A stretch of 56,839 nt of DNA, counting the filler, from Sluysia triapertura (lineage: Eukaryota), in assembly GCA_046118255.1 (NCBI GenBank). It is 4 parts of 4 records of this genome, joined end to end, with 100 filler letters (N's around TTAATTAATTAA, not from the genome) between each part and the next. Parts side by side here need not be neighbours in the genome. Positions count along the whole stretch, not along the records: positions 11,788 to 23,833 come from JBJNIA010145165.1; 3 more parts are not named here. One strand, written 5' to 3'. The notes below the pieces were generated by a model. The model saw only the letters and a list, made by a program, of their open reading frames with translations, was not told where the DNA came from and did not search any database. Positions 761 through 56,791 of the stretch are shown one piece after another. The translations under genes and the position numbers were made by a program. Within the stretch, counting starts at the first letter, position 1; every line of letters starts with the position of its first letter.

Positions 761-812
761 AAATCCTACGCAGACGTCCATTATAGGTAAATCGTTTGAC
801 GTAGGCGGACCC
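761..812 (+). ncRNA. Conserved bulged hairpin motif, copy 1 (putative cis-acting structured RNA of a mobile element)
   Basis: AAAT-CCTACG-CAGACG-[TCCATTATAGGTAAAT]-CGTTTG-A-CGTAGG-CGGACCC; homologous to 56792-56839(-), with compensatory changes in the inner stem. Confidence 0.6.
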
Positions 813-1070
813 AAAAATCTAAAGTTATTATTTTTATAATTGTTCGAAGAATTAAGAGAAAACCGAACAGTCCAAATGATATAGAATTATCCCAATAGTA
901 TCAAATTACCAAATCGAAATGAATATCTTAGTAATGTTGCTCGAACAAAGCCAGAAAATTATAAATGGCCGTAAAAATTGATTTACAAAGATATCTATTT
1001 AATTACAAATGGCGATTTTCATTGTTAGATGCTAGCTTATATACTAGTCATCCACCAATGAAAATCGATG

Positions 1071-6634: not shown

Positions 6635-6774
6635 TGTTAGACTTTATAAAACGGACTAACCGGGGATCGAACCCGGGACCTTCGCTGCGCAGTTCGATTG
6701 CTCTACCACTGACGATTTTATTTTATTATAGTCATTTTTACGAAATGACACTTTAGGCCTTTTTACCCCCAACA
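6635..6774. mobile_element. Short solo LTR (TGTT...AACA, 4-bp TSD TATT) containing an antisense tRNA-like segment
   Basis: Termini TGTTAG and CCAACA; TATT on both flanks (6631-6634, 6775-6778); second family member at 7791-7907. Confidence 0.7.
6653..6713 (-). pseudogene. tRNA-derived segment (Pol III A box, B box and T-arm) inside the solo LTR
   Basis: Minus strand GTCAGTGGTAGAGCA...GGTCCCGGGTTCGATCCCCGGTTAGTCC: D-loop AGTGGTAGAGC, T-arm CCGGG-TTCGATC-CCCGG; no pairing 5' acceptor strand and no clean anticodon stem. Confidence 0.7.
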
Positions 6775-9553: not shown

Positions 9554-10552
9554 TTAATTAGACGAAAAGAACTTTAAATTCATTTCGTATTGTGTGGAGG
9601 GTGAAAATTTCTTTTGTTTTAATGAAAATTTGATTCTCTTTAAAATTCTAATTACTACATTGTAAACATTAATGAAAATTGAATAATTTAATTTAAACTT
9701 TATAATATTAAACAAATTAAACGTTAATTTAAAAATTACTAACAAAATAGGCTTAAGGCCTGTATAACAAGAAAATGACAACTTCGAAACAAAATTTGTT
9801 GCTATATTAATAAAAACCAACAACAAAAAAACGAGTACATAATCAAAAATAACTTGATTTAAGCAAATCCGAATAGAGTTGTTTCTCCACCATAGTTTTT
9901 CATATATAAATTGACTGCAAGTTTCCAATTCGATGCCATGCATTTGCTTCTGCCCATTTGTAATAACGCATATAACGTTCAATTGAGATTTTCTCCGAAT
10001 AACTTTATAACTTTTGATATCTTTCAATAACGAAGTTGGTAATTCAAAAGGAGTATAATAGTAGTCATAAAAATGATTAACATATTTATCGTTAAACATT
10101 GATGTTTCAGAAAAATAGTGCACATACTCATTTCCACAATAAATGTATGGATAATTCATAAACATAATAACTCTAACATGCGCATTTCCACAATTAATGA
10201 ATGGATAATTCATAAACATAATAACTAAAACCATACATTTGCTATTAACTAAATCCATAACAATTGACTCGTTAGGAAAAACTTCCAGTGGTAACATGAA
10301 AAAATTTTGTTCCTCTGACAATTGGGACGTTTGAAAAATCATTTCGAATTTCGAATGTATTACCATTACAGAACTTCTGTTTTGACTAAAACAGTTGATT
10401 AAACATCCGTAATTATACTTCACAGTTAATTTATAAAAAGAAGTAGAAAATGCTGAACTAGGTATTTCCAAAAATGTATAGCCACCAATATATTTAAAAA
10501 CATTTAACATTACAGTTATAACAGATATGGTTTTCATTATTTCCATAGACAA
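9554..10552 (-). CDS. Uninterrupted 332-aa ORF of unknown function; hydrophobic N-terminus, Cys-containing middle, hydrophobic segment near residue 240
   Basis: A 1-kb open frame is unlikely by chance in DNA this AT-rich; family not recognised. Confidence 0.4.
   Translation of the reverse strand: MSMEIMKTISVITVMLNVFKYIGGYTFLEIPSSAFSTSFYKLTVKYNYGCLINCFSQNRSSVMVIHSKFEMIFQTSQLSEEQNFFMLPLEVFPNESIVMDLVNSKCMVLVIMFMNYPFINCGNAHVRVIMFMNYPYIYCGNEYVHYFSETSMFNDKYVNHFYDYYYTPFELPTSLLKDIKSYKVIRRKSQLNVICVITNGQKQMHGIELETCSQFIYEKLWWRNNSIRICLNQVIFDYVLVFLLLVFINIATNFVSKLSFSCYTGLKPILLVIFKLTFNLFNIIKFKLNYSIFINVYNVVIRILKRIKFSLKQKKFSPSTQYEMNLKFFSSN
10130..10226. repeat. 54-bp-period in-frame tandem duplication inside the 332-aa ORF
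   Basis: TTTCCACAAT..ATGGATAATTCATAAACATAATAACT starts at 10131 and 10185; encodes VIMFMNYPFINCGN / VIMFMNYPYIYCGN. Confidence 0.85.
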
Positions 10553-10779
10553 CTCTATAATTGATTTTATTTTTTAATTATGATAATTTTAATTTTATAA
10601 CCAACATTATAAAGCAATTAATATCGAATTAATATTTTCAAGATAATAAAGAACGAGAATGACAAATAGTTAATTTATAGGATAAAAATTTTGAAAATTT
10701 AAAATGAATCAAACCAAATAATAATGATAATGATAATAATAAGAATAAAAATACAATAATAATTACATAATATTAATAC

Positions 10780-11135: not shown

Positions 11136-11216
11136 GCCTTTGCTTTCTTTATGATCATTAACCATTTCACGATATATCATCTCAATGAATGTCGTAAATA
11201 AAAAATTAAAACAAAC

Positions 11217-11329
11217 AGAGAGATAGATTGATAATAAGGATAAAAAAAATAATAATGATAACAATTATGTGGTTATTATGTTTGTTATGAAGATTGTTAT
11301 AAAGTTATTATAAAAGTTATTACTATATG
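11217..11329. repeat. Interspersed AT-rich repeat shared with 23697-23833
   Basis: AGATAG.TTGATAATAAGGATAAAA...AATGATAACAATTA.GTGG.TATTATGTTT...TTATTATAAAAGTT.TTACTATATG present at both sites. Confidence 0.75.
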
Positions 11330-17700: not shown

Positions 17701-19313
17701 AATAATTTTATAGTAAATAGATTAATTTAAATCTCGCAAAGATTATCTTTTATAACTCGATATATTTGTTCATTTGATTGTGTTTGATTTATTCAATTCT
17801 ATTGTTGTCTTTAAAAAAACTATTTTTAAAAATTTATCGTAATTGTTTTTATCACTCGGAAATATAAATTATATATCAAAAATTCTACAATTCACTGAAT
17901 ATTTATACTCACTTCTAAATGTTTTGTGATTGGATACTCAATCATCTTTTATCAAAAATATTTTTCAAAAACAAATTCAGTATAATCATTTCTTCAATAT
18001 CATTGACAATACTAATAATTTACAACTCATTACTATGTATTGTGTAATTATGTAATTAATAATTATTAATTATTATTAACTTTATTTACAATTTATTGTT
18101 AGTCCTTTATTATACTATTAGTATTTTCGGATCCCAACACTTTTACATAATTGTAGTCAGGCATCACATAGTAATAGTTGTAATAATATTAATTGTAACA
18201 ATTATAATAACATTAGTTATAACAACAACGTGTAGTATATCGATACAATTAACAGATTAACTCCAATGAACGTTGGTCTACCATTATTATCGATTAACGT
18301 TTTTTCATAATTACGTATCAAATATAATTTATTGTTAAGTGAAATGTGGTTTTCTTTAAACGTGTTAACCCTACAGTCATAAATGAAATGAGTGAATTCG
18401 CTTGTGATTCGAAACTTACGCAGTTAAGGGCTATTCCACAGGATTTCAATGATCAGAAATAAAGTATAGATCCTATTTCTTTTCTTAATTACACTTGCAT
18501 TAATTCTTTTGTTAATCTTACAAAAGATTTGGAAATTCTACAATCTACAAAGATAAAATCCACTGCCTTATGAAGAATCAATGAATAATATAACAGCGCC
18601 ACTACATGCAAGCAATATGTCACTCACTTATGGTAGCATGGGAAGATGGCAATTATGAATATTCGTGTTATTAGCCATGATAGCATGTGTTTATTCACAA
18701 AATTTGATATCGGATTTATCATTTTCCTTGAAATATATGCAGACCTTCAATCAAATCTGTCACTAGGAATAAGTATTTCAAGAGAATATTATAAGTTTAG
18801 AACAAGTAATATATCTTATTCGAAATATATAAGTATAATATATCTATGACCAACTTAAATCAAATTTATAAAAAACACCAACTAACTTTTCAAAACTTTA
18901 CCTTTACCTTAAAAACAAACGAATGTCCGCAAGCAGTTGAAACTGTTAAAAGAATTACAAATTACCTACAAATCTCAACCTCATCGGAATCTATAAAATT
19001 ATTTTTAATAATTATGCCATTTTTAGTTCTTGTTAAATGTCAAAATTCAAGATTAAAAATAGCACGAATAAATCAACCGGCTATTTGCAAACAATTATCT
19101 TCAGACGCTATTTATAAAGTACCCGTATGGATACCAATTTTTATGGAACGCCGCAGTTTTAAATTTGGACTTAGGACTTATAAAACTTACGAAAATTTTA
19201 TTTATCCCTATGAAGGTGATTACGATATTTTATACGAAATAACAACAGACCAATCTGATGGTAACGAAACACTTTTATAAGATAACAACAAAGAAAATAA
19301 TTTCAGTTTTCCT

Positions 19314-19592
19314 ATGATCCAGAAATTTTACCTATGGCAGAATATAAAAATCAACGGCAGTCCAGTGCATGCACTTATCGATACTGCCGCGCCATATACC
19401 ATAAGATGCTTTGAATCTTTGAAAATACAGGAACTGCAATTTATTCGATCATGGTCTACCCATAATTGGTGTAATAACAATAGTGGAAACAGTAGACCGT
19501 AAATTATTAATAACATTTTTGGTAATTAGAAATTGCCCTACATCGTGCATTATTGGATTGGATACTATTCCAGCTGTTGAATATTATCAATG
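19314..19592 (+). pseudogene. Retropepsin-type aspartic protease remnant
   Basis: NIKINGSPVHALIDTAAPYTI (D-T-G/A active-site pattern) and, after a frameshift, TFLVIRNCPTSCIIGLD (IxGxD motif). Confidence 0.65.
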
Positions 19593-19865
19593 AATGTAAA
19601 TTTTGTTAACAATGATCATTGATCATTGATAAAATTATGAATATAACTTGTACTTGTTTATGATTATTTATTATTTGAAAAAATTTTTATTTGATTTTAT
19701 ATTTGTTTGATTTAAAAAATTTTTTATTTATTAACCTTTTGGAATCAAAGTATGTTATTTTAAATTTTATTGAATTTTATTAATTTATATGTTATTTTAA
19801 ATTTTATCAAATATTTCATTAATTTTAAATAATGAAAATTTTTAATTAAAAATTTTTTTTAGTTT

Positions 19866-19908
19866 GTTTTAATTTGACCTCTCAAGGTCAGGTTAAACAC
19901 TATTTAAA
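19866..19908 (+). promoter_or_regulatory. TGACC..AAGGTCA inverted repeat followed by a TATA-like box
   Basis: AATTTGACCT-CTCA-AGGTCAGGTT then TATTTAAA; homologous to 55624-55666(-). Confidence 0.4.
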
Positions 19909-20574
19909 TGAAAGCTTTTTAACATAAACTCACAATTATTTTCACAATTATTATTTTGTAAAGATCACACAGTTATTTCACAGTTACTTTGTAAACATAG
20001 CTATTTTGTAAAAATTATACAGTTGTTTTGTAAAAATTTTTGAATCTTCGATTTTAATCATTTGGAAAAAACAGTTGTCATTAATAAAAGTCACGTTAGT
20101 ATAATTTATATTAAGAATTGATATATTAATATCAAAAGAAAAATACAGATTAAAATTTTAATACATAACTGAACCATATAAGGGTTCAAGGTAAAATAGA
20201 TTTTAAAATTCATTAAACATTGTGTAACTAGTTATATCTAGTTAGAGGTAAAATTTATCATCATTTTTATTTTTTATATATTATTATATTGTTAATTTTT
20301 GTATAAATAAATTATTGAATAACTAAATTATTTTCTTTTATTTATTATAAAATCTTTAAAATACTTAATCAGATTTCAAACACTAGATTGTAATTCTAGT
20401 AAGTAATATTTATTTGATTGATCCCATATAACGGGATTTGCGTAACTTCATTTAAATTTTTTAATATTTAAATTATTTTTTGAATACAGATAGTATAACT
20501 CCAGATTCGAGACATATAACTAACCTTGATTTATAGTGTTAAGTAAACTTAGTTAAACTCTTACTTTATATTAA

Positions 20575-20623
20575 AAATCCAACGTCTGGCTCTCGCTGGT
20601 AAGTCCAGTACGTTGGTGAACTC
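20575..20623 (+). ncRNA. Bulged hairpin motif, copy 3
   Basis: AAAT-CCAACGT-CTGG-[CTCTCGCTGGTAAGT]-CCAG-T-ACGTTGG-TGAACTC; 48/49 identical to 54966-55014(-). Confidence 0.65.
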
Positions 20624-20676
20624 ACTTATAAGTTTTTAAATAAACTTCTCTTCAATTATTCTCACAGATATATAAA

Positions 20677-22519
20677 TTGTTGGGACTAAATGTAAATGAC
20701 ATTTTATTGTCGCTGCCAGAAAATTATGAGAAAAAAGTTGTCTCAGATTTTTGTTATATGCTAAAGGATTTTATTAACAAACCTAGTCTTCAAAAGGCAG
20801 TTATACATGATTTTTGGATTGTTTCTTATTCTTCAAGACAACAAAATATTTATACATAGAACAAATGATCATAGAGTTATTTCCATCATTGATAATACGA
20901 AGAGCATTTCTAATTTTTCTTACAATATCCGAGAATTATCTCTTGATACATCTCAAATGAAATCTAACTCAGAAACAAATTATCACCAATTAAATAACAA
21001 TGTGCTACCACAACCAACGATTAACGATAGTAAAGCTAACCAAAAACAATTAGTGCGAAATCGTATTTCTTCTAAAGTAAAACTAATTAATTGTCATTGG
21101 AACCAAGATAAATCGAGAAACGAATTACATGATGAGTTACGAATTCTTGGTGCATCTGAATGTATTAAATCATTTCACGATTATGTTTTTATTGGAACGC
21201 AAAAAAATATGTTTTCGTTTACATTTCAGCATCAAGTAACCAATTTTTATGTAATGTTGGTAAAGTCCAGGAACCTTTAGTCTTCCAAATGTCAGAATTT
21301 CTTGGAATTAAAATCAATGAACCTGTTGAATTTATAGATAAAAATGTTAGTGTATGGAATGATGGAACTTTGAAGTGGTCCCCTTCACTATCAAAACTCA
21401 TGCAAACTTTAAGTTTAAACAATAGTTGCAATTGTATTTGTCGTTATAGAGATTGAATATTTGTGTTAGTAGACGATAATTAAATATATGCATTAGTTGA
21501 TACTTCAAGTTTACAGTTAGTTCAAGCTTATTCACAGAATGAGAATGTCGAGTTAGCTTTAATGTTAGCAAAATTAGCATACTTACTTGGTGAAGACACG
21601 AAAGTAACTTCAAAAATTAATCGTCGTTAAACAAGAATGCTGTTCAAAAGATAGTTCGAAAGATAATTCAGTATATTCATGGATATGACAACAGTTCTAT
21701 TTGATCTTCTCGCTCCTTCCTCTATGTTATGTCCAGAGAAATTAAATAAAGAATTAACTAGGCGTTTAAATGAAGTTTTCAGTAAAAAAGAAAACACTCA
21801 AGTTATGTACGCGTTGATAGATTTTTTGTTAAATGGCGAAATGATCTTCAGAAACGATCAAGTGGTGATAATATTTCGGAACCAACAAATCAAGCGCAGC
21901 AGTCATTCATGCTAAAGAGTTCTTGTCGAGTCATGAACAATTAATCAAGTATAATCTACTAAGAGATTCTATAACTCGGCTCAATCCTCGACGACAAGTT
22001 CTCGCAATTACGGACACAGGTCCGCTCAGAAGTTATCCTACTATAAACACTTCGTCTATGTTATTTTCTGTGGAAGTTACAGATTACTTCGTCTACGAAC
22101 ATTACTTAAAAGTAATTAGAAATTTTGATGTTATTAACTTCATTTTTATTATTGATGATCTATTAGAAGACGGAAAACTTACTCGGGAAAACATTAGTAG
22201 AAAAAGAATTTCAAGAATAAATATTAAATTGTCTGTTAAATCTAATAAAACTTTTGTTAATTTTATTGAGTTCTCGATTGATTACAACATTGAATTAAAC
22301 TTAAACAGAAAGATCATTGAATTTTTAACCTTACAATGTTTAATATCAGTTAAAATAAATAAAACGAAGAAGTCAATGTATCATCGTAGCTTTAATTTTA
22401 AAATAAAACTTTTAATTTATAAAAACCATATAAACATTACCACATTTAATACATTTTCTTTTATTTGTAAAGTCACTTATTACTTTAATCGATTAGTGTA
22501 TCATTCATTGTATTATTAA
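20677..22519 (+). pseudogene. Long fragmented ORF (roughly 600 codons over several frames), unknown family
   Basis: Successive co-oriented ORFs 20677-20859, 20807-21280, 21679-21915 and 21923-22519 with coding-like composition, starting ~50 nt after the hairpin. Confidence 0.45.
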
Positions 22520-22767
22520 TAAACTTAAAAATGGTTAATATACTTATTGATTCAATTTTGAATATTTAAAAAACTAAATAACGAGTGCTGCTTATAATCA
22601 TACAGTTGTAAACAGTGACTTAAAATTTTCAATATTAGATTCGATTTAGTAAGGATACCGTTTTTAATTATGCTGTAGTAAAATCTGACACAAAAATACT
22701 AAAAATTATTAATTAAAGGGCTTACGATTTTTTTATATTAATTAAACCTCCACTGATTATTTTTGCT

Positions 22768-22819
22768 GATACCTACAAACTAGCCCTTATGTATATAAGA
22801 CTAGGATCGTAAGGGACTC
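22768..22819 (+). ncRNA. Possible degenerate hairpin motif, copy 4
   Basis: CCTAC-AAA-CTAG-[CCCTTATGTATATAAGA]-CTAG-GATC-GTAAGG-GACTC; GATTC..GGAT companion at 22638-22660. Confidence 0.3.
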
Positions 22820-23304
22820 ACGTTTCACATCATAATATAAAACATAAAATTTCGCTATAATATTTCGTAATGCTTGATTCATTTGATTTTTATTTAACAA
22901 TTGGAAACAGATTATATTTTTCTTGCAATTTTTGCTCAATTAAACAACTTACGCCACATCATTATTTTTCCTTTGAGAAAAATTTTCCTGCAGAGACTTA
23001 CAAAACAATTCTAAAAATACAAAACTAATATTAAAATCGATAAAGCATATCATTAAACTAATAAGTTTAAACCAATAAGGAAAACTGCATATGATACATA
23101 TATTAGCTGTTATATTAGCCTAGTTATACAACTAGATAGTAGATTTATTAAGATAAGCTTTACTTGAGATGATCGTTTTGCAGTAATATTTTCATGCGCT
23201 ATAGCAAATAAAAAACTTAACTATTAATGATATTTTATTTTTATTTCTATTGAATAATTTAAAATTAATTAATAATTAATGTGTTTTTATTTTTTACTTA
23301 TGAG

Positions 23305-23580: not shown

Positions 23581-23696
23581 TTTTAGAAAAAGTTGATTCA
23601 GTAATTTGAGTAAAATAAACCATCATTGTCAAAATAATATTAGTATTATCACCCATAAAAATGTTAAATCATTTTACAAAATAAACTTAGACATAA

Positions 23697-23833
23697 ATAG
23701 AAAGATAGGTTGATAATAAGGATAAAAGAAATAATAATAATGATAACAATTACGTGGATATTATGTTTATTAATACAAAATTGTTGACGTAAGAATTTAT
23801 TATGAAATTTATTATAAAAGTTGTTACTATATG
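23697..23833. repeat. Interspersed AT-rich repeat shared with 11217-11329
   Basis: Direct sequence similarity, same orientation. Confidence 0.75.
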
Positions 23834-23933: not shown

Positions 23934-24940
23934 AATTTATTGCTTAAAGAATCAATAGTCTTTTTGTTTATAAAGTAAACTACTAACGGAATAACTATAC
24001 CACCACCAATGAAGTTACCTATAAATGCAGGAAGTAGGTTAAATCCCAAAAAGTAAGCAACTGTAATTCCACTAATATGCTCACCATTACTAATTGATTT
24101 CCCAACAGTAAATACATCTACTCAAAAAATAAAAGAATTAGCCACAACGTGTTGAAATCCTGCAACACAGAAACCAAAAATTGCTATAAATATTAGAAAT
24201 ATTGCAGCAATTGCGCTTTCACTAGCATATGTTAAATATAAAGAACCACCAACTAGAATATTACAAAATATAGCTGAAAATAAACAATTTAAGAAAGTAA
24301 CACCCATAGTCTGGCCACTAACATTCTTATTAGCTGCCAAATCATTACCAATTAATCCTAGCTTATGCAAAATCATTTGAAAAGATTCAAACCCATAAGT
24401 TCCATTTGCAATTTGGCCATTAACCAAGTTAAACATAGCACCAGTTAAAAGAATAGCAACAGCTGTTAAAAAGCAACCAACAAAATTTCCAAAAAACATC
24501 AACATTAAATTTTTTGTAAATGATGAAGCAGAGACATTTTTCTTTAAAACATTTAAAAATCCTACACAATTAGATGTATAAAGACCACCACCAATAAAGG
24601 TAATAAGTAAAATACCAATAGGGAAAACAGCCCCAAATATTACTTGTCTAACTCCATTACCTGTGACTTGGCTTATAGCCGTCATAGCAACAATATAACC
24701 TAATGAAATGAAAATTCCACCAAGAATACCCTCTATTATTGTTTTTAATGCTTTATTATTAGATTTTTGCATTGAAGCTTTATAGCTACCAATGGCTGCT
24801 CTTTCATAAAAATAATAATTTTTGTTTTCATTAAAGTTATTATTTTTTTCAATGATGGCTTTTTCTTCTTGAAATTTTTTTAAAACTTCTTCATTACTTT
24901 TTTTCTTAAAAAACAAATTCCTAATTTTTACTGAAATCAT
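23934..24940 (-). CDS. Formate/nitrite transporter (FNT) family channel, 3' end truncated by the contig edge
   Basis: FPIGILL..GGGLYTSN, GNFVG, AIFCNILV, GFQHVVANSF; reading TGA (24122-24124) as Trp continues to FIGNFIGGG. Confidence 0.9.
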
Positions 24941-25010
24941 TAATAGCCTACTAACCCTAAACACATAATAAGAATATTTTAAGTAATTTCATTAAAATTA
25001 AAAAAATTTT

Positions 25011-25643
25011 TTATAAATAACTTTTTAATTCATGATTATTAATCATAATATCTTCTAATATTCCTATTCTTCCATGACCAGGGCATATAATATTATCTTT
25101 TGAAAAAGTATTACAAAATTTTATTAAGCTATTTTTCATTTGTATATCATTTCCACCAATTAAATCGGTTCTTCCTACCCCATCATAAAATAGTAAATCA
25201 CCTGTGAATATAAAGTTGTTATATTGATAACAAACTAGTCCCGGAACGTGACCTGGGAATAAAAAAACACTTAAATTAAAAACACCAAATGTTAGTTTCA
25301 AATCATTAAAAAATACAATATGTTTTTCATCAATTATAATTTCTTGTTTGAAGAATTTACTTAGATTATTTTTAATTAATGTTGATTTATCTTTTTTATG
25401 AATATAAATTTTTACATTATGTTTTATAGCTAGTTTTATTCCATCTCCAATATGATCGAAGTGGCCATGAGTTAATAATATAGCCCGCAATTTTAAATTA
25501 TTTTTATTTAAAAAATCTTCACACTTTGAAGAATTTCAGCTAATATCAATTATTAAAGCTTGGCCATTTTTATGAAGAATATAGGTATTGTTATCAATAT
25601 AATTATGGTTAAAACAAACAATTTCCTTCGAAACTATATTCAT
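25011..25643 (-). CDS. MBL-fold metallo-hydrolase (glyoxalase II-like)
   Basis: LLTHGHFDHIG, PGHVPG, FTGD, PGHG; N-terminus extends through one TGA to the ATG at 25643. Confidence 0.9.
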
Positions 25644-25645
25644 AA

Positions 25646-26098
25646 CTATTTTTTACCTTTTTTATATGAATTTATTTCCTTGATTAAAGAAGAAGATATT
25701 TTATCTAAATCATAATTAGATATAAAATATACCGTTTCAATATCATTGCATAATTCATGGTTAGCAAAAGCCAATTCCATTTCATAATTTAAATCCTTAT
25801 TATTATTTCTTAGGCCCCTAACAATATAATTAGCTTTTAATCTCTTTGCACATTCAACTGTTAAGTCATCTTCATTTGTAATGACATAAATATTATTTTT
25901 TAATTTATTTTGTTCTTGTAATTGTTTAATTATTAAAGAAATATTTTTTAATCTGAAATCTATATCAATAGCACTTGGTTTATTTTTATTTTTTGTAACT
26001 ACAACATATAAAGAATCAAATAATTTAGATGCTTTGTTAATTATATTTATATGTCCTTCGTGCAACGGATCAAAACTTCCTGGGAATATAGCTACCAT
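25646..26098 (-). CDS. coaD: Phosphopantetheine adenylyltransferase
   Basis: AIFPGSFDPLHEGH, IVRGLR, YEMELAFAN, ISSSLIKEI. Confidence 0.95.
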   Translation of the reverse strand: MVAIFPGSFDPLHEGHINIINKASKLFDSLYVVVTKNKNKPSAIDIDFRLKNISLIIKQLQEQNKLKNNIYVITNEDDLTVECAKRLKANYIVRGLRNNNKDLNYEMELAFANHELCNDIETVYFISNYDLDKISSSLIKEINSYKKGKK

Positions 26099-26294
26099 TA
26101 AATTTCCTTTAAGTATTAATAAAATCTTATTTATTTATATTTTAATTTATCTTTTAAATTTAAATAATACTAAAAACATTAAAAAGCCACAATTTTTTAA
26201 AAACATACATTTAATAAACTTACGCTAAAAAATTATTTTTCCTTTTTTTTGAATAAGTTCTCAACTAATATTTCTTTTAAATTTATTATTTTAG

Positions 26295-26303
26295 TGCTAT
26301 AAT
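26295..26303 (+). promoter_or_regulatory. Extended -10 promoter for the rpmH operon
   Basis: TGCTATAAT about 40 nt upstream of rpmH; SD-like GAAAGGT at 26333-26339. Confidence 0.6.
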
Positions 26304-26343
26304 TTCCTTTTGTTAAATAAAATTAATAGTATGAAAGGTAATT

Positions 26344-26481
26344 ATGAAAAGAACATGACAACCAAATAAGTCAAAAACTAAAAAAACACATGGTTTTTTA
26401 GTTAGAATGTCTTCTAAAAAAGGACAACAAGTTCTTGCTAGACGAAGAGCTAAAGGAAGAGATAAAATAGCTGTTCAGTAA
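26344..26481 (+). CDS. rpmH: 50S ribosomal protein L34
   Basis: MKRT(W=TGA)[34 protein letters not shown]; absent from the ORF track. Confidence 0.95.
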
Positions 26482-26492
26482 TATACTATTAA

Positions 26493-26846
26493 ATGAAAAA
26501 ATATGTTTTAAAAAAAAACGAAGACTTTCAAAAAATCCTTAAAAAGGGATATAAATTTAAAAATGATTATTTTTGTGTTTATATTCAAAAAAATCAATAT
26601 GATCATCCTAGATTTGGCATTTCAGTACCCAAAAGTAAATGTAAAAAAGCATTTACAAGAAATAAGATTAAAAGATGAACAAGATTAGTAATTATGGAAA
26701 GTTTAAATACCCAAATTAATTTAGATTTTGTGGTAATGATTGTTTTTAAAAATTTTAAAGAAGTAACATATAGTAAATTTAGAGAAAAATTACTTATTAT
26801 TTTGTTAAAATTGAATAATATGAAAGGGCATGATGCTAAAAAATAA
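26493..26846 (+). CDS. rnpA: Ribonuclease P protein component
   Basis: LKKNEDFQ, RFGISVPK, KAFTRNKIKRW (RNR-like motif); lies directly after rpmH. Confidence 0.92.
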
Positions 26847-27906
26847 TTTATCAGTAAATAAGTTCATTAAACAATCACATATGAACTATAAAGCTGAAAA
26901 AAAATTATGAAAAGAAATATTTAAATGACTAAAGCGCATACTTTTTTTATTTTTATTTGGAATGGCTTTAATAGGATGTTTTCAACAATTGATTGATAAC
27001 ACAATTCAAACTAGCAATTTTGCAGGTTCTGGTTCTGAAATATGCGGATGAGGCGGAAGTTGTATTAATGGTCATAATGTAGCTCCCGGGGGTAATAGTG
27101 AATATGATTATTATCCGATCATAACATGAGGCGATGCTTGATCTCATGGGCCATTTTATGCTTTATTTGTTTACCCATTTTCTTTATTTTTATCTTTATT
27201 AATCCATTCGATGAACTCACAAATTGGTTTGGGTGGGGGGATTATAGTAGCTATATTGATTTTAGTTCTTTTGATTAGAACAGTAACACTTTTATTTACA
27301 ATTCCACAACTAAAAATGCAAGCTCACATGCAAACCCTTCAAGTTAAGGTTGCTGAGATTAAATCACGTTATGGGCAAAACAAAACCTCACAAGATAAAC
27401 AAAAAATGCAAATGGAAATAATGAATTTTTATAAAAAAAATAACTTTAAGCCAATGGCATTATTTGCTTCAACTTTTGTTACATTACCTTTCTTTTATGC
27501 GATGTATCGAAGTACAGCGATGGTTAGGGAAGTTAAACAAGGAACACTTGGTCCAATAGATTTTAATGTAACTATATTGTCAGAAGTGTTTAGCTTACAT
27601 CAATGGATATATTTAGTTCCTTTCTTTATAGTTGTGCCTACTCAAATTCTAGCTATGAAAATTCAAAATATATTGAATTATAAAAAGAATAAGATGATGG
27701 ATGAAAAAGCACGGAAGCAATATAAGAAAACGCAATTGATGTTTACAATAATGATGATTGTTTTCGTCTTTATTTCTATAAATGTTGCGTTTTCACTAAC
27801 AGTTTATTGATTCTTCTCAAACATTTACACTATCATTCAATCAATAGCTATTTTTTACTATCAAAAAAATTCTAAAAATAAAGAAATGCGGTTAAAGGCC
27901 TCCTAA
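26833..27906 (+). CDS. yidC: Membrane protein insertase YidC (Mollicute type)
   Basis: ALIGCFQQ, WGDAWSHGPFYALFVYP, QKMQMEIMNFYKKNN, LPFFYAMY, VYWFFSN in code 4; synteny with rpmH-rnpA. Confidence 0.92.
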
Positions 27907-29226
27907 ATGACTTCAAGAACAATTGTGGCTTTAGCGACAGCACCTGTCAATTCAGCTTTAGCGATAATAAGGATGTCTGGACCAAACACTTTCAAAATAC
28001 TTTCATTAATATTTCAATCAAAAACAACTAAGTATTTGAATAAGCAATTTTATTATGGAAAGTTAATAGATAAAGAAAAACTAGTAGATGAGGTTATTGT
28101 CTTATGCTACAAAAACCCCAATTCTTTTACTGGGGAAGATCTAATAGAAATTATTTGTCATGGAAATATTTTAATTATTAATGACATTATTAATTTGTGT
28201 ATCAAAAATGGTGCAACTTTAGCTAAAAGAGGAGAATTTTCCGAAAAAGCATTTCTAAATGGGAAAATAAATCTTTTAAAAGCTGAGGCCATAAATAATT
28301 TGATTAATTCAAAATCAGAAATTTCTAAAAACACATCACTTAAAAATTTATTTGGTGATTCAACTAATTATTTAGAATCTATAAAAAAAGAACTACTAGA
28401 TTTGATTGCCTCAATCGAGGTAAGCATTGATTATCCAGAATATGATGAAGTAGATATTTCTAAAAGTACAATTTATAAAAATATTTTAATAATAGAGAAT
28501 CAACTTAAAGAACTAATAAATAACAATAATGTTTATAAAAATTATGAATATGGTATAAAAACTGCTATCGTTGGCAAACCAAATGTAGGCAAATCTAGCT
28601 TATTGAATGCAATGCTAAAAGAAAATAAGGCAATTGTTTCAAATATCCCCGGAACAACAAGAGATATAGTTGAAGGAGAAATTTACATTGATAACATTTT
28701 ATTAAAGATTTTAGATACGGCGGGCATTAGAAAATCAACAATTAAAAATGAAATATTGGGAATTAATAAAACAATTGAGACCATCAAAAAAGCTCAATTA
28801 ATTATTTACCTAACAGATAGAAATTTTGAAATAGAAGAATCTATTAAGCCATTTTTAAAAGATAAAGAAGTTATATATGTTCAAAACAAAAAAGATATTT
28901 ACTCAGTAAGAAACGATTTATTTTTGCCAATATCAGCTAAAAATAATGAAATAAATAATTTAATTACTAAAATAAAAAAAACGTACTCAAAAATTTATTT
29001 AGATTTTGAATCAATGCACATTTATCCAAAAGAAAAAATAGTATTCTTTGAAAAATTGATAAAACTTTTAGAACATTCAAAAGAAATGCTTTTACAAAAT
29101 ATATCTATTGAAATAATATTATTAGATATTACAGAAGGGTATAATTTATTAGAAGAAGTTATAGGTAATAAGTATCACGAAGATATAATTACCACTTTAT
29201 TTAGAAATTATTGTTTAGGGAAGTAA
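27907..29226 (+). CDS. mnmE: tRNA modification GTPase MnmE/TrmE
   Basis: TIVALAT, SFTGED, GKPNVGKSS, GTTRD, DTAG, NKKD, terminal YCLGK. Confidence 0.97.
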   Translation: MTSRTIVALATAPVNSALAIIRMSGPNTFKILSLIFQSKTTKYLNKQFYYGKLIDKEKLVDEVIVLCYKNPNSFTGEDLIEIICHGNILIINDIINLCIKNGATLAKRGEFSEKAFLNGKINLLKAEAINNLINSKSEISKNTSLKNLFGDSTNYLESIKKELLDLIASIEVSIDYPEYDEVDISKSTIYKNILIIENQLKELINNNNVYKNYEYGIKTAIVGKPNVGKSSLLNAMLKENKAIVSNIPGTTRDIVEGEIYIDNILLKILDTAGIRKSTIKNEILGINKTIETIKKAQLIIYLTDRNFEIEESIKPFLKDKEVIYVQNKKDIYSVRNDLFLPISAKNNEINNLITKIKKTYSKIYLDFESMHIYPKEKIVFFEKLIKLLEHSKEMLLQNISIEIILLDITEGYNLLEEVIGNKYHEDIITTLFRNYCLGK

Positions 29227-29227
29227 G

Positions 29228-30016
29228 ATGAAAACAGGAAATATTATTGATACACATTGCCATTTAATAAACGATATATACTCAGAAAAGTCATACAAAA
29301 TAGAAGAAGTTATTCAAGAGGCAAATAATCTAGGCGTTACAAAACTAATATCTGTTTCTTGCTCGCTTGATGAAACAACTAAAAATATTGATCTTTGTAG
29401 CATGCATAGAAATTGTTTTCCAACTGCCGGAATTCATCCTTGTTATGCACAACAAACAAAGTTATCGGAGGTCGATTCTCTGAAAAAATTAGCATCACAA
29501 GATAAGGTAATTGCTATCGGGGAATGCGGATTAGACTACTATTATGCTAAGACACCAATTGAGCAAGGTAAACAAAAATTAATATTTGAAGAACAAATTA
29601 AATTAGCAGTAGAATTAAAAAAACCCCTTATTGTGCATTGTCGTAATGCTTTTAAAGATCTAATTGAAATATTAGAAAAATATAATAAAAAAATTAAAGG
29701 GGTTATACATTGCTATACTGGTGATTTAGAATCTGCTAATAAGTTAATTTCTTTAGGATTTTATATTTCTTTTTCGGGCATAATAACCTTCAAAAACGCA
29801 TCCATCTTAGAAGATGTAGCTAAAAAAATTAGCATAGATAAAATTTTAATAGAGACTGATTCTCCATACTTAGCCCCAGAACCATATCGAGGGGAAATAA
29901 ATTTTCCAAAAAACGTTATATTTATTCTAGAAAAAATCGCCCGCCTAAAAAAAATTCCTTCACAAGAATTAACTAAGCAAATAGAGGATAATACAGCCCA
30001 ATTGTTTTATATTTAA
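29228..30016 (+). CDS. tatD: TatD family DNase
   Basis: DTHCH, GIHP, AIGECGLDY, HCR, HCY, ETDSPYLAP. Confidence 0.95.
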   Translation: MKTGNIIDTHCHLINDIYSEKSYKIEEVIQEANNLGVTKLISVSCSLDETTKNIDLCSMHRNCFPTAGIHPCYAQQTKLSEVDSLKKLASQDKVIAIGECGLDYYYAKTPIEQGKQKLIFEEQIKLAVELKKPLIVHCRNAFKDLIEILEKYNKKIKGVIHCYTGDLESANKLISLGFYISFSGIITFKNASILEDVAKKISIDKILIETDSPYLAPEPYRGEINFPKNVIFILEKIARLKKIPSQELTKQIEDNTAQLFYI

Positions 30017-30017
30017 A

Positions 30018-31628
30018 ATGAATAAAATAATAAAAATACATCCTAAAAAATCCTTAGGTCAAAATTTTTTACAAGATAAAAACATAATACAAAAAATTGT
30101 TAATCAAGTTAAAAATGAAAACAAAAAAATAGGAATTATTGAAATAGGCCCCGGCACCGGCGCTTTAACAGAGCATTTGATTGATATTGCAGAAAAGCTA
30201 GTTTTAATTGAGATAGATAAAAATTTAGTATCTATATTGAAAGATAAATACAAAGGAGAAAATGTTTTTATCTTAAATAAAGATATTTTAAAAATAAATT
30301 TAAATGATGTTGTAAATGATTATTTTAATACTAAAAATCTTGATGAAATCATAGTTATTTCTAACACTCCTTACTATATAAGTTCACTAATTTTATTTAA
30401 AATATATGCTTCATCACACCTTATTAATCGGGCAATCCTAATGATGCAAAAAGAAGTAGCTGAAAAAGTAAAAGGTGTTTTTCAAACTAAAAATTATAAT
30501 AATTTATCTATTATTTCTAATTATTATGCTAATTATAACTTTATAACAAATGTTTCTAAAAATTGTTTCTTTCCTAAACCTAAAATAGATAGCACAGTTT
30601 TTGAATTAAGATTCGATAAATTTAGAATTTTAAATCCCGAGGAAAGCTTAAATTTTGAAAAATTTTTAAGATCTTTATTTTTAAATAAAAGAAAGACTTT
30701 AGTAAATAATTTGAAGCATAATCTCCACTTTGATGAAAAAATAATCAATAAAGTTTTAAATTATTTTTTTATTGAATTAAATATTCGTTCTGAACAACTA
30801 AGTCTTAAAAAATTTTTAAAATTATTTATATTTTTTACTAATTACAAGCAAAAAAATAGTTACTTATTAAGAAGCAATTCTAAATTAACACTTGCTTTTA
30901 ATGCTTATCATAACAAGGTTGATGGTTTACATGACATTGAAGGCATTTATTACCCATGATTTAAAAACGAAGATGAAATTTTAATTAATTTTAAAAGTAA
31001 AAAAACAAGAATTTTTGTTGGCAATAGTGAATTTATTATTATCGAAAATAATATTCAACAATTACTATTAGCTTTGAAAGAAAGCAATATATTTACAGAA
31101 AATATCGAAGTTTTCATATGAAAAAATAATAACCCAGGGACAGGGTTGGCTGCTGGAAGTGGAAATTTATTTGTAGTGGCAAAAGCCATATGCGATTATT
31201 TAAAAATTGATGTATCAGAAATTAGGGACATACTTTATAAAATATCTTCTGATTCCTTGTTTTATTATCACAATTCATTAGTGTATGTGAATAATTTTGG
31301 AAAAAATTATCAACCTATAAAATCTAAAATACATTTATATAATTTTATTAAAGTATTTACACCCGAAAATATATACTGTAACACTAAAGAAATTTTTAAA
31401 CAATTTGATATTGATAAAACACAAGAAAATTTAAATTTTTCAGATTTAGTTAATTACTTAGAAAAAGACGATTGAAAAAATTTTGTAAAAAATACAGCAA
31501 ATGTTCTTCAATCTTCGGCCCTTAAAAATGATGAATTAAATAGCTATTATAAGAAAATATCTAAGTGTAAAGATAAAATTATTCTTTTAGGCTCAGGGTC
31601 ATCTTTTATAATTTTCAAAGATAGTTAA
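30018..31628 (+). CDS. rsmA: Fusion: 16S rRNA dimethyladenosine transferase RsmA/KsgA (N-terminal) plus IspE-like GHMP kinase (C-terminal), 536 aa in code 4
   Basis: KKSLGQNFL, EIGPGTG, NTPYYIS, FFPKPKIDS; the same frame continues with no TAA/TAG through SKLT..DGLHDIE, PGTGLAAGSGN, ISSD, LGSGSS. Confidence 0.85.
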
Positions 31629-31708
31629 ATTATTCATTAATAAAGTGGAAAATAATTTTAATAAACATATAAAATAATAGTGTGTAAAAACTATTAAAGG
31701 AAAATATT

Positions 31709-32704
31709 GTGCCCAATAATAAAGAAAAAGTTTTAAATAATATTGTCTTATTTGGTTTATCCAATTCAAAAGAATTAGCTAAAAAGGTTTCTAAAATATT
31801 AAATATCCCCACAATTGACAATACCAAAGAGTGCTTTGCCGATGGTGAAATAATTGTTAGATTTAAAGAAACAGTTCGTGGCAAAGATGTATATGTTATT
31901 CAATCAACATGCCCACCTGTTCATGATAGTATATTTGAATTGCTAATTTTTATGGATGCTTTAAAAAGAGCAAGTGCTAAATCAATAAATCTAGTAATAC
32001 CTTATTATGGTTACGCAAGACAGGATAGAAAATGTAAATCACATGAACCAATTACATCTAAATTAATAGCATCAATTTTAGAGTTATGCAAAGCTAATAA
32101 AGTTATAACTTTTGACTTACATGCTCCACAAATTGAAGGTTTTTTTAATATTCCTGTTGATAATTTAAGTGCTTTGCCTACAATATGTAATTTTATTTTG
32201 GAAAAAAAATTAGAAAATTTAATAATAGTTGCTCCTGATCAAGGCGGAGTTGTTAGAGCAAGAAGATTAGCCGAGTCATTAAATACTCCTATCGCTATAA
32301 TAGACAAGCGAAGAATTGGCAAAAATATAACCGAAGTAATGAATGTTTTGGGTGATGTCAAAGATAAAAATTGTATTTTAATAGATGACATGATTGACAC
32401 AGGTGGAACAATAATTAAGGGTTGCGAAGCATTAAAAAAACAAGGAGCTAAGTCAATTTATGTTGCTTCAACACATGCAGTTTTTAGTGGTCAAGCTGTT
32501 GAAAGATTAAAAAATTGTGAAGTTATTGATGAAGTTATTATCACAGACACCATCCCCCTATCTAAAGAAAAACATTTTTCTAAATTAAAAATAGTATCAG
32601 TTGATAAATTTTTAGCTGACGTTATAAATGCTGACATTCGTTGTCATGGTGTTGGTAAAGTTTATCGTGAGCACACAAAATCATTTTATAAAGTATGAGA
32701 TTAA
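31709..32704 (+). CDS. prs: Ribose-phosphate pyrophosphokinase
   Basis: [36 protein letters not shown]; GTG start; ends W-D-TAA in code 4. Confidence 0.97.
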
Positions 32705-33261
32705 TTGTTGGTTTAGGAAACCCAGGTCTTAATTATGTTAATACAAGACATAATGTAGGGTTTTTGTATCTTGATAATTTTGTAATTAAAAATAAGTTAA
32801 TATGAATTAATAATTTTTCTGGACAATATTGCAAAACTAAAATAAATGATCAGGATGTGATCTTATTTAAACCTGGAAATTATATGAATTTAAGTGGGCA
32901 ACCTATAAAAGAAATTACTAATTTTTTTAAAATTAAAGTAGATGAAATATTAGTTATCCAAGATGACAAAGATTTAAATATTGGAGATTTAAAAATTTCT
33001 ATTAATAGATCTGCTGCTGGGCACAATGGAATCAAAAATATTTTTGAAGTATTTCACACTCAAAACATCGCTAGAATAAGAGTGGGAATTTTAAATTCAG
33101 ATAAATTACATAATTTAAAAAATTTTGTCTTAGCTAATTTTACAAATGAAGAATTACAAAAATTAGAAAATAATATTTTTAATAAAATAACCTTGATAAT
33201 TAATGATTTTACAGTTTTATCTATTGAAAGAATTATGAATAAATATAATGCTAAAACTTAA
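32695..33261 (+). CDS. pth: Peptidyl-tRNA hydrolase
   Basis: [33 protein letters not shown]. Confidence 0.95.
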
Positions 33262-34540
33262 TAAAGAAAAAAAATACATCATTGGCGTTAGTGGCGGCCC
33301 CGACAGCATGTTTTTACTATGAAATTTAGTAAAAAACGGAATTTTAAATATAGTTGTTTGCCATGTTAATTATAATTTTCGCAAAAGTTCTTTGAATGAT
33401 GAAAATATAGTAAGAAATTTTTGTAAAAATAACAACATTAAGCTATTTGTTAAATCTCTAAAACAAGAAGATTTTAAATCAGGTAATTTTCAAAATTGAG
33501 CTAGAGAAGTTAGGTTTTCTTTTTTTAGAGAAATATATCTAAGTGAAAGGTCTGACTATTTATTAATTGCGCATACTAAAAATGATTTTATTGAAAGCTA
33601 TTTAATGCAAAAAAGAACTAGAAAAAATGTTTATTTTTTTGGTTTACCATCAAAAGGTTTTGCTTACAACATGAATATTATTAGACCTATTATTAATATT
33701 TATAAAAGTAATATTATTTCACAACTTAAAAACAACTCGATTAGTTATGGAATAGATGAAACCAACTACTTGCCAAAGTATACAAGGAATAAGATAAGAA
33801 TAGAATTAAGCAATTTATCTGCCGCAAAATTAAATGCACTACATAAAGAGGCTAAGGAATTAAATAAAGGATTTTATGATAGGTTTAAATCAATTAATAA
33901 ATTAATTTCTAAAAATAAAGTCTATAAAATAAGTAAATTTTTATCCTTAAATATTTTAGACCAACTTTTTTTCTTATCTTATATATCTAAAGGGCTATTA
34001 ACATCAAAAATAATCACAAATAATTTGATTAATATATTAAAGAGTAAGCAACACCCAAGCTATGTTTTTAATTATAAAAATTTTTATATCTATAAAATGT
34101 ATGATGTTTTTTGCATTATTCTTAAAACAGATAAGAGCCCACCAAATCATCATTATAAGTATGATGTTATAGCCCTTGATAAGTTAACTAAATTAGAATT
34201 TCAAGAAGCATCTTTTTTAAAAATATCTACACATAAAATAAAAAATGGTATAGAATATATTATTCCAAGTAAAAACATTATTGTAACTAACTATGGAAAT
34301 TTAAACTATAATTTTAAAAATATAGTTAAAAGTTATAAATTTTCAAATGCTAAAATACCACTTTTTTTGAGAGAAATGTGACCAGTATTTTGGGATAATT
34401 ATGAAAAGAAAATAATTTTGATACCATATGTTTATTATGATAGGGCAAATTTAAATAATAAAATTATATTAAAGATTTGAATAAAGAAAGATTATTATGA
34501 GTGAATTTCAAGAGATAGTATACACTTCAGAGCAAATTAA
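33248..34540 (+). CDS. tilS: tRNA(Ile)-lysidine synthetase
   Basis: IGVSGGPDSM PP-loop, HVNYNFR, AREVRF, AHTKND, DETN..YTRNKIR; in code 4 it overlaps hpt by 44 nt. Confidence 0.92.
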
Positions 34541-35015: not shown

Positions 35016-35048
35016 GTGATAGAATAAATTAATATATTATAGGTAAAG

Positions 35049-37127: not shown

Positions 37128-37147
37128 TTTTTTATAAAGGAAATAAA

Positions 37148-38281: not shown

Positions 38282-38282
38282 A

Positions 38283-53114: not shown

Positions 53115-54965
53115 CTATGAATAATAAATCTAATAAAATAAATAAATACTTTTTAAAATAAATGTTGTAGTACTAAAATTTCCAGAACGATAAATACATT
53201 AAAAGTGATTCATTAAAACAAAAACAAGCAAAAAAACAATGATTATAAACATTGAAACTTGTATATTTATGACATAATGTTATATTTTCAAATATATATG
53301 GCATCAATAAAAATTTTGATATATTTTGTATATTATAAAAAATAAAATTTAGAATAGAAATTTTAAGTATAAAAGATATATAATTTATTTTTTGTGCCAA
53401 GTTCCTAAGTTTTTTAACAAATGTTATAAAACTTTAAATAACATTGTTAAATTCGAAATATGCGTATTTTGATCTCAAATTGTTTATTTTGTTTCAATGA
53501 TTTATGTTTTGTTTTAAAACACTAAGCAGTTAATTTAAAATGTACGCATAAATTGTGGGATATTTTGTTTTAAAAGTTTATAATTTATTTTTGTATGTAG
53601 TTTTAAAATTATTGAAGTTGTTAAAAACTTTAAATAGTATTGTGAAATTTGATATAATTTTGATTGTGTACTGTTTTCTTTTGTTAGAGACATTTTGTAC
53701 GTTTTGTTTTAAAACACAAAGAGCATTTTTAAAACCGAATTTGATTTATTATTATGGTATTTATTCACAATCAAATTGTTTGTATAATTGCACACCTTAA
53801 ACATTTAATTATAAGTTGATTGATAAATTCGCTTTTTAGTGTTAATCATGGAATCAAATTTAAACCTAACAATTAAAAAGAATAAGAAAATAATTTGTAA
53901 TTATGATTTAAATATGTTCTATTTAAGAAATGTTGCACAATACCAAACTTCAGAATATTTGAGATAGTGATTAAATTATTTATTCGATTTTAAATTTGAA
54001 AAGGTTATTAAATAAATTAAATGTATTATAAATGTAACAAATTTGTAAAATATTGCTAACACATTAATTCCAAATAAAAATTTTAAAATGTTAAAATGGA
54101 CGATAAATATTTCTAAAGAGTCCATAGATCTGTTGATTGTTGTGCAATGGTTGATTGTTATGTAATGGTTTCGGTTAGAAGAGAGGATTACATTTGTATT
54201 TGGTGTTAATAATTAAAAATTTTAAATTATGAACTTAATAAAAGAGCCTAACTCACAGCAAAGTAAATAATTATTATTCAGAGTCCGTTTGCAGTATACG
54301 ACTTACTAATGGCGTACCTGTAAAAATTATGCGAAAGCAATTCTAAAAATTAATTGTATAAAAGTACTCTTTGCCTTAACTTAAACAATAATGGACAAAA
54401 TCGACTGATACTCATTGACTTAAAAAATAATCACGACCAACGTTGGATTCGACAATATTTATATAAAAATATATTATTCTTTTGTTTCTTAAACTTAACT
54501 TCAATTATTACGTTTAAAAGTTTACGCTGTAATTCACTTGCTTCCGCTAATAAAACTTATCTAATTTTTAAATTTCTTACGTTTGATTTATATCACGAAT
54601 TTAACGCAAATTTGCAATAAACTAAAAACTTCAAATTATCCAAAGTTTATTATGTGACAAATTGAATAAATTAAAATAATACAATGGTGAATTTATAAAG
54701 CTAAACAGCAAAAGTACTAATAATCAGAATTTTGTAAATAATGTTGGATTAGTGAAAGGCAAAGGTAGATATAAAGGTTCAAGATTCAGAATAACAGATA
54801 AGGTAAACGATATTGAATAATTGGGATAGGGGATTATGATGAATTGTAATGATATACTCGATACGATATAATGATATGAGATACTTGAATCAAGATAAGA
54901 CAATGAAAGATACAAAGAAATATGAGAAAATAACGTTAATAGAATAAAAGTTAAATTATAACTCT

Positions 54966-55014
54966 GAGTTCACCAACGTACTGGACTTACCAGCGAGGGC
55001 CAGACGTTGGATTT
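54966..55014 (-). ncRNA. Bulged hairpin motif, copy 5
   Basis: AAAT-CCAACGT-CTGG-[CCCTCGCTGGTAAGT]-CCAG-T-ACGTTGG-TGAACTC. Confidence 0.65.
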
Positions 55015-55623
55015 GGTAAAGTAAAAGTAATGGAGGTTAAGTCAAAATTTATCAGATTTTTTGAATTTATGTTAGCTGTTTCGGATGTTATCTATTAATT
55101 CAATAATTAGTAATTTATACAATTTCAAAAAGTTTAAATGTAACCTTCGCAGATCCTTTGAAATAGGATCGAAATGCTTATGTTGCGATGTTAGATTTAT
55201 ACTCTAACAGAAATTCAATTGACGGGTGATTTTTCTTTATTTTAAAACTATATAAATTAATTCAAATTAAGAAAATTAAATCTTATGTATACAAAATTAC
55301 GCAAGAATTAATCAAATTCTTTTTACTCAGAAATTGTAGCAAAAGTTTACAAGGAAACTATTTAAGATTCGAAAATAATTTACAATAATGATTTTGAGTA
55401 TGATTTTACGAGGTTATCTTATCGATATCTAGTCCTATAAAAATAAACTAACTATCCTAATGGAAAAATTGAATAAAATTGATATCTCGGGTAGCTTGAC
55501 AAAATTGGCACGAAAATATAATCGAAAAGTTAAGCCTTTATGGAGAAATCACCAGGAAGATTTAAGTCAATTGAGCAAATAATTAGTCGAAAATGTGTGT
55601 AGATGTATTCAAAAATTGTGCTT

Positions 55624-55666
55624 ATTTATATTTGTTTTAGTCTGACCTTGGTCAGACTAAAACAAA
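55624..55666 (-). promoter_or_regulatory. Perfect 17-bp-arm palindrome followed by TATAAAT
   Basis: TTTGTTTTAGTCTGACC-AA-GGTCAGACTAAAACAAA then TATAAAT on the minus strand. Confidence 0.45.
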
Positions 55667-56791
55667 ACTAATATTTTATTTATTAAAACAAATGATTTTT
55701 TGTGATTAGTTTTTTAATTAAATGTAATTATATAATGTAATTTTATAATTTTTTATTAATAATTTAAAAATAATTAAAATCTTGCTTAAAATTATTAAAA
55801 TTGTTTTGATTAATTCCTTTAATTATTGAAAATATCCTTTAAATTTGAAAGTAAATAATAAAAAGTGTAAAATCAACAATCAAATTATAAAATCAATGAA
55901 TGCTGTCACAATACCAAGTCTAGTCATTACAAATATCAATGCATGTTAGTATAAAATCAATACAAATATCAATGTATATTTTATGTTGTATTAGTCATCA
56001 TTACTATATTAATAAATAAATAGTTTATTACACATAAGTTTAATAATATTATCTGATATTATTTCTTATTTTCTAAATCCTGTAGACGAGCCCTTAAGTG
56101 CGTAAGTTTCGGATCATAGGCGAACTCACTAATATCATTTATCTGTCTCTTGTAATTGTGAGTTAATTCTTTAAAAGAATCCACAATGCAATAATGAAAT
56201 TTATTATTATTATTATGAACACCAAAATAGTAAAAAACCCTCAATGTAGATAGCGTAAAATCATTAATTGTTTTAATTGGTTTTCTTCATTATAAAGTTA
56301 AATTTCTACGTATTATAATGTGCATACGTGTAAATATATATATATCAAATTAATCCTCTGTGGTGAACAACCCAATATTGTAAAATTTTAGTTTAATAGT
56401 ATACAACAAAATTATATTTCAGAATATCTCACAATTTGTAATACCTTCAAACACTCCAAACATGAAATTTAATATCATCCAAATCATACCCAACATTGAA
56501 AATCATCAAAGATTAACCTTAAAAATTAATTGAGATATTTTAAATTTAATTTAACAAACTCCACATAAAATCACATTCCATGACACTTTAACTATTTTTC
56601 ATTTAAGCCTTTCTACATTTTAATTCCTCTACTTCCACTAAAATCTTATCCTAACCTGCACAAAACATCCCTATTTCATACTTCATAACATAAAAGTACA
56701 TATACTTTCAGAGTAATAACAGACATCACAAAAATTAATAATTGTTCTGTTTTTATCTACTAGAACAATTATAAAATAAATTTTAGAAGCT

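Follow-up and report, generated by a model that had tools for sequence, protein, structure and literature searches.

In Sluysia triapertura, a hairpin near the 3′ end of certain long terminal repeats (LTRs), together with two short boxes complementary to a transfer RNA (tRNA), probably helps to open and activate the primer tRNA for reverse transcription, and the region where we examined it is, on the same reading, nested LTR debris. The DNA under study is a stretch of 56,839 nt (the window) from an assembly of 619 Mb in 263,945 contigs. It joins four stretches, the third of which is bacterial while the remaining ones have a GC content of 24%. A preliminary description had taken the recurring motif for a regulatory leader placed before each accessory open reading frame (ORF) of one large element. 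Judged by its position and base changes, this "leader" is a covarying hairpin near the LTR 3′ end in one Gypsy-type clade, and in 5′ LTRs it is followed by a primer-binding site and then by gag. Because the boxes match a host tRNA and change with it, they likely help to load the primer. The LTR at 19575-20666, which we assign to family C, has the following features.

19575..20666, + strand: family C LTR of about 1.1 kb with TG...CA ends; the homology of other copies is confined to about this span
19875..19890, no strand assigned: TGACC palindrome within this LTR, present in 14 of 29 copies
20420..20438, + strand: GATCC hairpin within this LTR, present in 22 of 29 copies
20499..20505, + strand: short feature within this LTR, 5′ of the conserved hairpin
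20579..20616, + strand: conserved covarying hairpin with an RYAAR loop end, from the covariance model and folding
20618..20625, + strand: octamer GAACTCAC, resembling a primer activation signal (PAS) and complementary to nt 49-56 of tRNA-Met
20639..20644, + strand: AATAAA, a candidate poly(A) signal by sequence; several subfamilies lack it

We searched the genome with positions 20400-20640, which gave 955 first-look candidates, of which 40 were scored; family C comparisons refer to 29 non-self loci. In 28 of these a CA dinucleotide follows shortly after the hairpin and the right flanks are unrelated, while the 29th is cut by a contig end. Exact 4-bp target duplications flank 6 of 25 two-ended copies, compared with 1.3 by permutation (p = 0.0005). 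Two copies with a common right flank led to the junction of LTR end and primer-binding site: CACA followed by 4-14 nt and one and the same primer-binding site has 173 matches in the genome (a few double-counted) and none in the control. The strict family C motif lies upstream of 19 of 31 primer-binding sites examined. The CA end is about 10 nt from the site, where 1-3 nt is usual. A candidate primer site 0-4 nt from the LTR end was rejected, its 19 pattern hits having no common downstream sequence. A gag frame with a CCHC knuckle lies 3′ of the primer site in 44 of 62 loci with a Met- or Lys-type site; it matched Pfam Retrotrans_gag with an E-value of 5e-5, just under the cut-off, and a weak search of longer proteins with the gag query gave no match at E ≤ 0.001. 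By its termini, the target duplications of its relatives, and the primer site and gag that follow them, 19575-20666 is the LTR of an LTR retrotransposon. In the family C clade, no 3′ LTR was seen joined to internal sequence. One locus (L137) has two related LTRs arranged head to tail with a short AT repeat between them.

The primer-binding site is complementary to the 3′ end of a tRNA-Met(CAT) gene (L207), whose product looks, from its sequence, like an elongator tRNA. Nucleotides 49-56 of the same tRNA are complementary to the octamer directly 3′ of the hairpin. We had predicted ahead of the data that the octamer complements the T arm of the primer and that families carrying a C in it use another tRNA. 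This was borne out, as the C-type families have a tRNA-Lys-like primer site (261 matches, some double-counted). Met- and Lys-type test loci were chosen on the primer-binding site alone, and in them the discriminating octamer base was T in 23 of 24 parsed Met-type copies and C in 14 of 16 Lys-type copies. A gag tree including 34 of the 62 loci requires two primer changes, trees with a single change making up 0% of the bootstrap. Of the three octamers in the nested Lys subclade, two carry C and one is damaged; the Met-type neighbors have T where the octamer is present. Since copies are related, few independent events (at least two switches) underlie the counts. As a candidate primer, tRNA-Sec was rejected; the genome has two such genes (L192 and L193), and their 3′ ends do not match.

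A second box complements nt 39-47 of the tRNA, and its sequence likewise changes with the primer. Its cognate 6-mer was found in 23/39 Met-type and 9/20 Lys-type loci, compared with 3/39 and 2/20 for the non-cognate 6-mer; in the control region, the 6-mer occurred in 0/31 and 0/14, respectively. Both LTRs treated here, that of family C and that of a sister subfamily described below, carry this second box. The octamer, for its part, has the sequence features of a PAS: it is the complement of the 5′ strand of the T arm, lies upstream of the primer site, and has changed with the primer in at least two switches, with L172 and L185 as exceptions.

Nine of 14 tRNA pattern hits were primer-binding sites extended by an antisense copy of tRNA-Met, eight of them reaching nt 39. 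These extensions may be the footprint of a reverse transcriptase reading this primer. At the read-through loci (L202-L206, L209, L211, L213, and L214), the copy ends at nt 39 in eight of nine cases and unrelated DNA follows, and they are likely integrated plus-strand read-through products. L208 is an apparent counterpart with another tRNA. L187, L188, and L189 have variants of the primer site whose extension consists of a T-loop-like complement plus a short inverted repeat.

The hairpin itself is more conserved in structure than in sequence. A covariance model with 21 copies as training rows found a hit in place in 26/32 Met-type and 16/26 Lys-type loci. Across loci selected on the primer site, stems of very different sequence stop 0-2 nt before the octamer in most copies. 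Over 53 model-aligned hits, 82.7% of stem cells were paired, compared with 59.3% after shuffling; two-sided changes occurred in nine of ten stem pairs, a count that only 22 of 500 shuffles reached. The divergent hairpins are one structured motif, as the preliminary description had held. An A-rich loop is present in 10/16 Lys-type and 1/26 Met-type copies.

Several observations weigh against a tRNA-binding function or limit it. Two loci combine a C octamer with a Met site (L185, and L172, which is a training row and stands outside the count), and parsing failed for two Met-type model hits. Among Lys-type octamers, several match at just 5-7 of 8 bases, and the Lys tRNA is represented only by two partial or damaged copies, with no ARAGORN call in L231. 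The second box lies at a variable distance of about 50 to 200 nt from the primer site and is missing from 16/39 Met-type and 11/20 Lys-type loci. As regards the hairpin, the alignment used for covariation (A3) was fitted to the structure and its copies are related, 137 of 500 shuffles reached the observed count of pair types, and folding in fixed windows gave modest mean z values (-1.2 for Lys-type, -0.5 for Met-type). The family C LTR of the window has neither a primer-binding site of its own nor a target duplication. No pol was found behind the Met primer site in 12 longer contigs, in which copies are truncated or contigs short, and therefore the membership of the family C clade in Gypsy rests on gag, LTR, and primer site. 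Finally, five bases of the octamer could pair with the primer-binding site itself.

This last possibility underlies an unlikely alternative, in which the octamer pairs with the primer-binding site within the element RNA, the hairpin is a switch that masks or exposes the site, and the match to tRNA is a by-product. CTCAC in the octamer is complementary to GTGAG of the primer-binding site, and the two sequences vary in step; visual inspection also showed a U5 tract in family C that complements the 10-nt spacer preceding the site. However, the GRAC half of the octamer matches the T loop of the tRNA, which is absent from the 18-nt site, and the second box matches nt 39-47, likewise outside it. Such a switch and tRNA pairing are not mutually exclusive.

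Less probable still is a role in splicing, in which the hairpin would present a 5′ splice site (GTAAGT) for a short intron across the LTR end or for suppression of the 5′ poly(A) site, with the octamer as branch point. In family C, the last bases of the loop are GTAAGY, and CTCAC, a pyrimidine tract, and YAG come next, ahead of the primer site; among Met-type copies GT and YAG are each present in 18/26. In Lys-type copies, however, only 4/16 loops have GT and 5/16 junctions have YAG, whereas AA is kept in 39/42 copies of both types, and the tracking of the primer by the octamer would be left unexplained. That the hairpin acts as a catalytic RNA of an undescribed kind, self-cleaving or other, we consider very improbable. 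The fixed geometry and strong covariation would suit a ribozyme, the loop end and tail bear a loose resemblance to twister-sister motifs, and plant retrozymes reportedly carry ribozymes in their LTRs; yet the window had no Rfam match at gathering score, no ribozyme family was found at E ≤ 10 in 13 loci, and the conserved tail is accounted for by the tRNA.

We return to primer loading. Once the primer-binding site holds the 3′ 18 nt of the tRNA, the T arm would give up its 5′ strand, which would then be free to pair with the octamer. The anticodon-stem strand may pair with the upstream box, and the hairpin between the boxes would bring both together. Should the upstream box be part of U3, its action would instead be at the 3′ LTR, where it would aid first strand transfer. 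The pairing and its effect on priming are inferred by analogy with the PAS model of HIV-1 (human immunodeficiency virus type 1; PMC3675109, PMC1865047) and with the contacts of Ty1 and Ty3 (PMC5371799). A broader scenario is possible but tentative: a Gypsy-type clade with three tRNA docking sites around a hairpin scaffold, at least two natural switches between Met and Lys with the boxes following, new boxes gained through captured read-through cDNA, and fossils scattered in the genome.

The PAS of HIV-1 is an 8-nt sequence upstream of the 18-nt primer-binding site that complements the 5′ strand of the T arm (nt 48-55), adapts upon primer switch, and is conserved across retroviruses (PMC3675109, PMC1865047), although the PAS itself has been disputed (PMC1865047). 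The octamer described here similarly lies upstream of an 18-nt site, corresponds to nt 49-56 of the tRNA, and follows the primer. It differs in belonging to a Gypsy-type LTR, in its place directly 3′ of a conserved hairpin, and in the natural Met/Lys switches, and it is known here from sequence. A second contact in HIV-1 involves the same part of the tRNA as our second box but lies between PAS and primer site, whereas the second box is mostly upstream of the hairpin and only in one subclade downstream of the octamer. As with the bipartite sites of Ty1 and Ty3, retrotransposon RNA would contact the primer tRNA beyond the core site; unlike those elements, which have a divided site and use initiator tRNA-Met (PMC5371799), the present clade has a full 18-nt site plus boxes and an apparent elongator tRNA-Met or tRNA-Lys. 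The TG...CA short inverted ends and the AATAAA near the 3′ end resemble those of Metaviridae LTRs (PMC3601003), and the accessible portion of that account names no tRNA-complementary boxes. The read-through loci resemble HIV-1 read-through proviruses, in which an LTR and primer site are followed by an antisense primer copy extending past A58; in HIV-1, however, the copy is 7-54 nt long and is followed by strand transfer (PMC12657518), whereas eight of nine loci here stop at nt 39 and continue into unrelated DNA. We found no report of PAS-like boxes in animal Gypsy LTRs, or of PAS-like and anticodon-stem boxes following the primer in an animal retrotransposon clade, in a literature search whose scope ended short of most subscription journals, Repbase, and supplements. 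So far, the PAS draws its best support from primer switches that were engineered or arose in laboratory evolution. The present genome, with hundreds of copies, adds at least two switches of natural origin through which the signal followed the tRNA. This is evidence from evolution for contacts of the PAS type in animal retrotransposons, and a short RNA and a tRNA would suffice to test them.

The surroundings of the family C LTR bear on the proposal of a modular element. They contain the following features (folding z compares each copy with its shuffles).

18345..18470, - strand: truncated 3′ end of a family A LTR, with a CA terminus at 18345 and a sharp boundary common to related loci
18391-18446, - strand: decayed hairpin and octamer of this family A end; model match of 41.8 bits with other family A copies in the training set, folding no better than shuffles (z +0.8)
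18470..19574, + strand: truncated internal fragment of Ty3/Gypsy family B, with part of the post-integrase membrane-protein region, a late retropepsin, and an internal deletion near 19326
20667..22444, + strand: truncated copy of the high-copy family D repeat, ending near CA; 781 candidates
22768..22822, + strand: divergent copy of hairpin and octamer, likely from another LTR family; model match (the copy is a training row), fold alone z -0.9
54921..56001, - strand: LTR of the sister subfamily of C, 5′ boundary approximate; 2205 candidates
55037 and 54963-55015, - strand: tRNA box, and hairpin with octamer, of the sister-subfamily LTR
56002..56185, + strand: another LTR end of family A, cut short by the sister LTR
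761..869, + strand: LTR end of the tRNA-Lys-primed type
about 56745-56839, - strand: sister copy of the LTR end at 761..869

The four colinear anchors on which the proposal was built were all located in both stretches. They are a supposed ORF end (18379-18462 and 56142-56059, 82% match), TGACC palindromes (19875-19890 and 55643-55654), GATCC hairpins (20420-20438 and 55152-55170), and the main hairpin with its surroundings (20553-20634 and 55040-54953, 84% match), which folds far better than shuffles in the 20579 copy (z -4.8) and in the contig-4 copy (z -4.0). That the material derives from an LTR retroelement was also confirmed by LTRs with TG...CA ends and by 4-bp target duplications in other copies. 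The reading of the hairpins as per-ORF leaders inside one large element did not hold up. Three anchors lie within one 1.1-kb LTR, and the fourth is an antisense read of the end of another LTR. This "ORF end" was not confirmed as coding sequence: differences among codon positions are 2/3/5 in 22 codons, the repeat begins only about 35 nt upstream, and the flanks are unrelated; by sequence it is the end of a family A LTR with the same type of hairpin on the opposite strand. The differing cargo, read before as module content, is a truncated piece of another Gypsy family, which has its own, different LTR.

Spacing and coding content did not support the modular arrangement either. Where motif copies had been said to follow one another at about 2 kb in one orientation, the covariance model found 11 copies in the window at E < 0.002 (5 of them training rows) on mixed strands; a 12th is interrupted where a contig ends, and the bacterial stretch has none. 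The nine gaps between neighboring copies range from 0.7 to 3.6 kb, with four within 2.0-2.25 kb; same-strand gaps range from 0.7 to 5.8 kb, and the copies are strongly divergent in sequence. An ATG frame of at least 60 amino acids (aa) lies within 1.5 kb 3′ of only 3 of 12 copies (less than 1.5 kb being examined where a stretch ends), one of them the 20574 copy, which is followed by a 157-codon frame. Two of the frames described earlier are present, one of 156 codons at 18810 and a protease-like one at 19281; Pfam matches stayed below the cut-off.

The linkage of the pieces was not reproduced in the other copies examined. Neither A nor B was found upstream of C in any of 29 copies (every one of sufficient length for the contig-4 layout and six for the contig-2 layout), neither C nor B downstream of A in any of 20 (14 with at least 1150 nt), and neither B nor C upstream of D in any of 19. 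Together with the polypurine tract and LTR that family B has of its own, this leaves hardly any credibility for a single large modular element in which every accessory ORF has its leader at a period of about 2 kb, despite the four gaps of 2.0-2.25 kb, the frame behind the 20574 copy, and the A end upstream of a C-type LTR in both stretches. This last arrangement may be a coincidence, which we ascribe to the high local density of such repeats. An LTR inserted into an intact protease gene was also ruled out, since its left and right flanks come from different repeats. By the boundaries of its pieces, 18345-22822 is an ordinary patchwork of nested debris from several LTR retroelement families.

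Family B could be characterized from its other copies, which include a protease, reverse transcriptase, RNase H, integrase, a membrane-protein region, a late protease, a RING domain, a purine tract, and the different LTR; Pfam RVP, RVT_1, RNase H, integrase zinc finger, and RING were matched. The order protease, reverse transcriptase, RNase H, integrase in L124, together with the polypurine tract and LTR start in L122, L126, and L127, identifies it as Ty3/Gypsy, and the relatives of its reverse transcriptase have Gypsy-type domain sets. The 144-aa ORF noted earlier is part of a longer family B region, and its M is replaced by I or L in the other copies compared. Kinship with the planarian Burro elements, which had been suggested as possible relatives, found no support in a comparison of layouts. 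Burro is likewise a Gypsy-type element with accessory domains, including a RING-related motif, but its 4,900-aa polyprotein has env after gag and before pol (PMC6431247), whereas the membrane region of family B follows integrase. Family B (L122-L127) has three retropepsin-like domains, two of them before reverse transcriptase in L124 and the third 3′ of the post-integrase region with its signal-like and membrane stretches and PPPY motif. A separate RING ORF stands behind a conserved hairpin of its own. In the family B 3′ LTR (L122, L126, and L127, - strand), a different hairpin precedes a stretch that complements tRNA-Met nt 40-54 almost without interruption and unites both boxes. In family D, indels are mostly not multiples of 3 and there is no period-3 signal. 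Copies elsewhere run upstream into family D's own sequence, shared among D copies but not with B or C; 11 other copies have their upstream sequence in common with L079.

Other parts of the window contain unrelated features. Positions 23934-43797 are a gene-dense bacterial contig, Mollicute-like in its low GC content and in frames broken at TGA, within an animal assembly; yidC, trmE, ksgA, ftsH, and an ABC transporter were recognized by eye, and the contig is likely from a symbiont or a contaminant. An orphan frame of 339 codons with a hydrophobic segment lies at 9554-10573 (- strand), with no Pfam match above the cut-off. A tRNA-like repeat at 6625-6712 (- strand) without an ARAGORN call also occurs in several unrelated loci and is likely of the short interspersed element type. 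Segments 11213-11329 and 23695-23833, near the ends of two contigs, are 77% similar. An intact, intronless ORF of 406 aa at 51894-53114 (- strand) encodes a member of DnaJ subfamily A.

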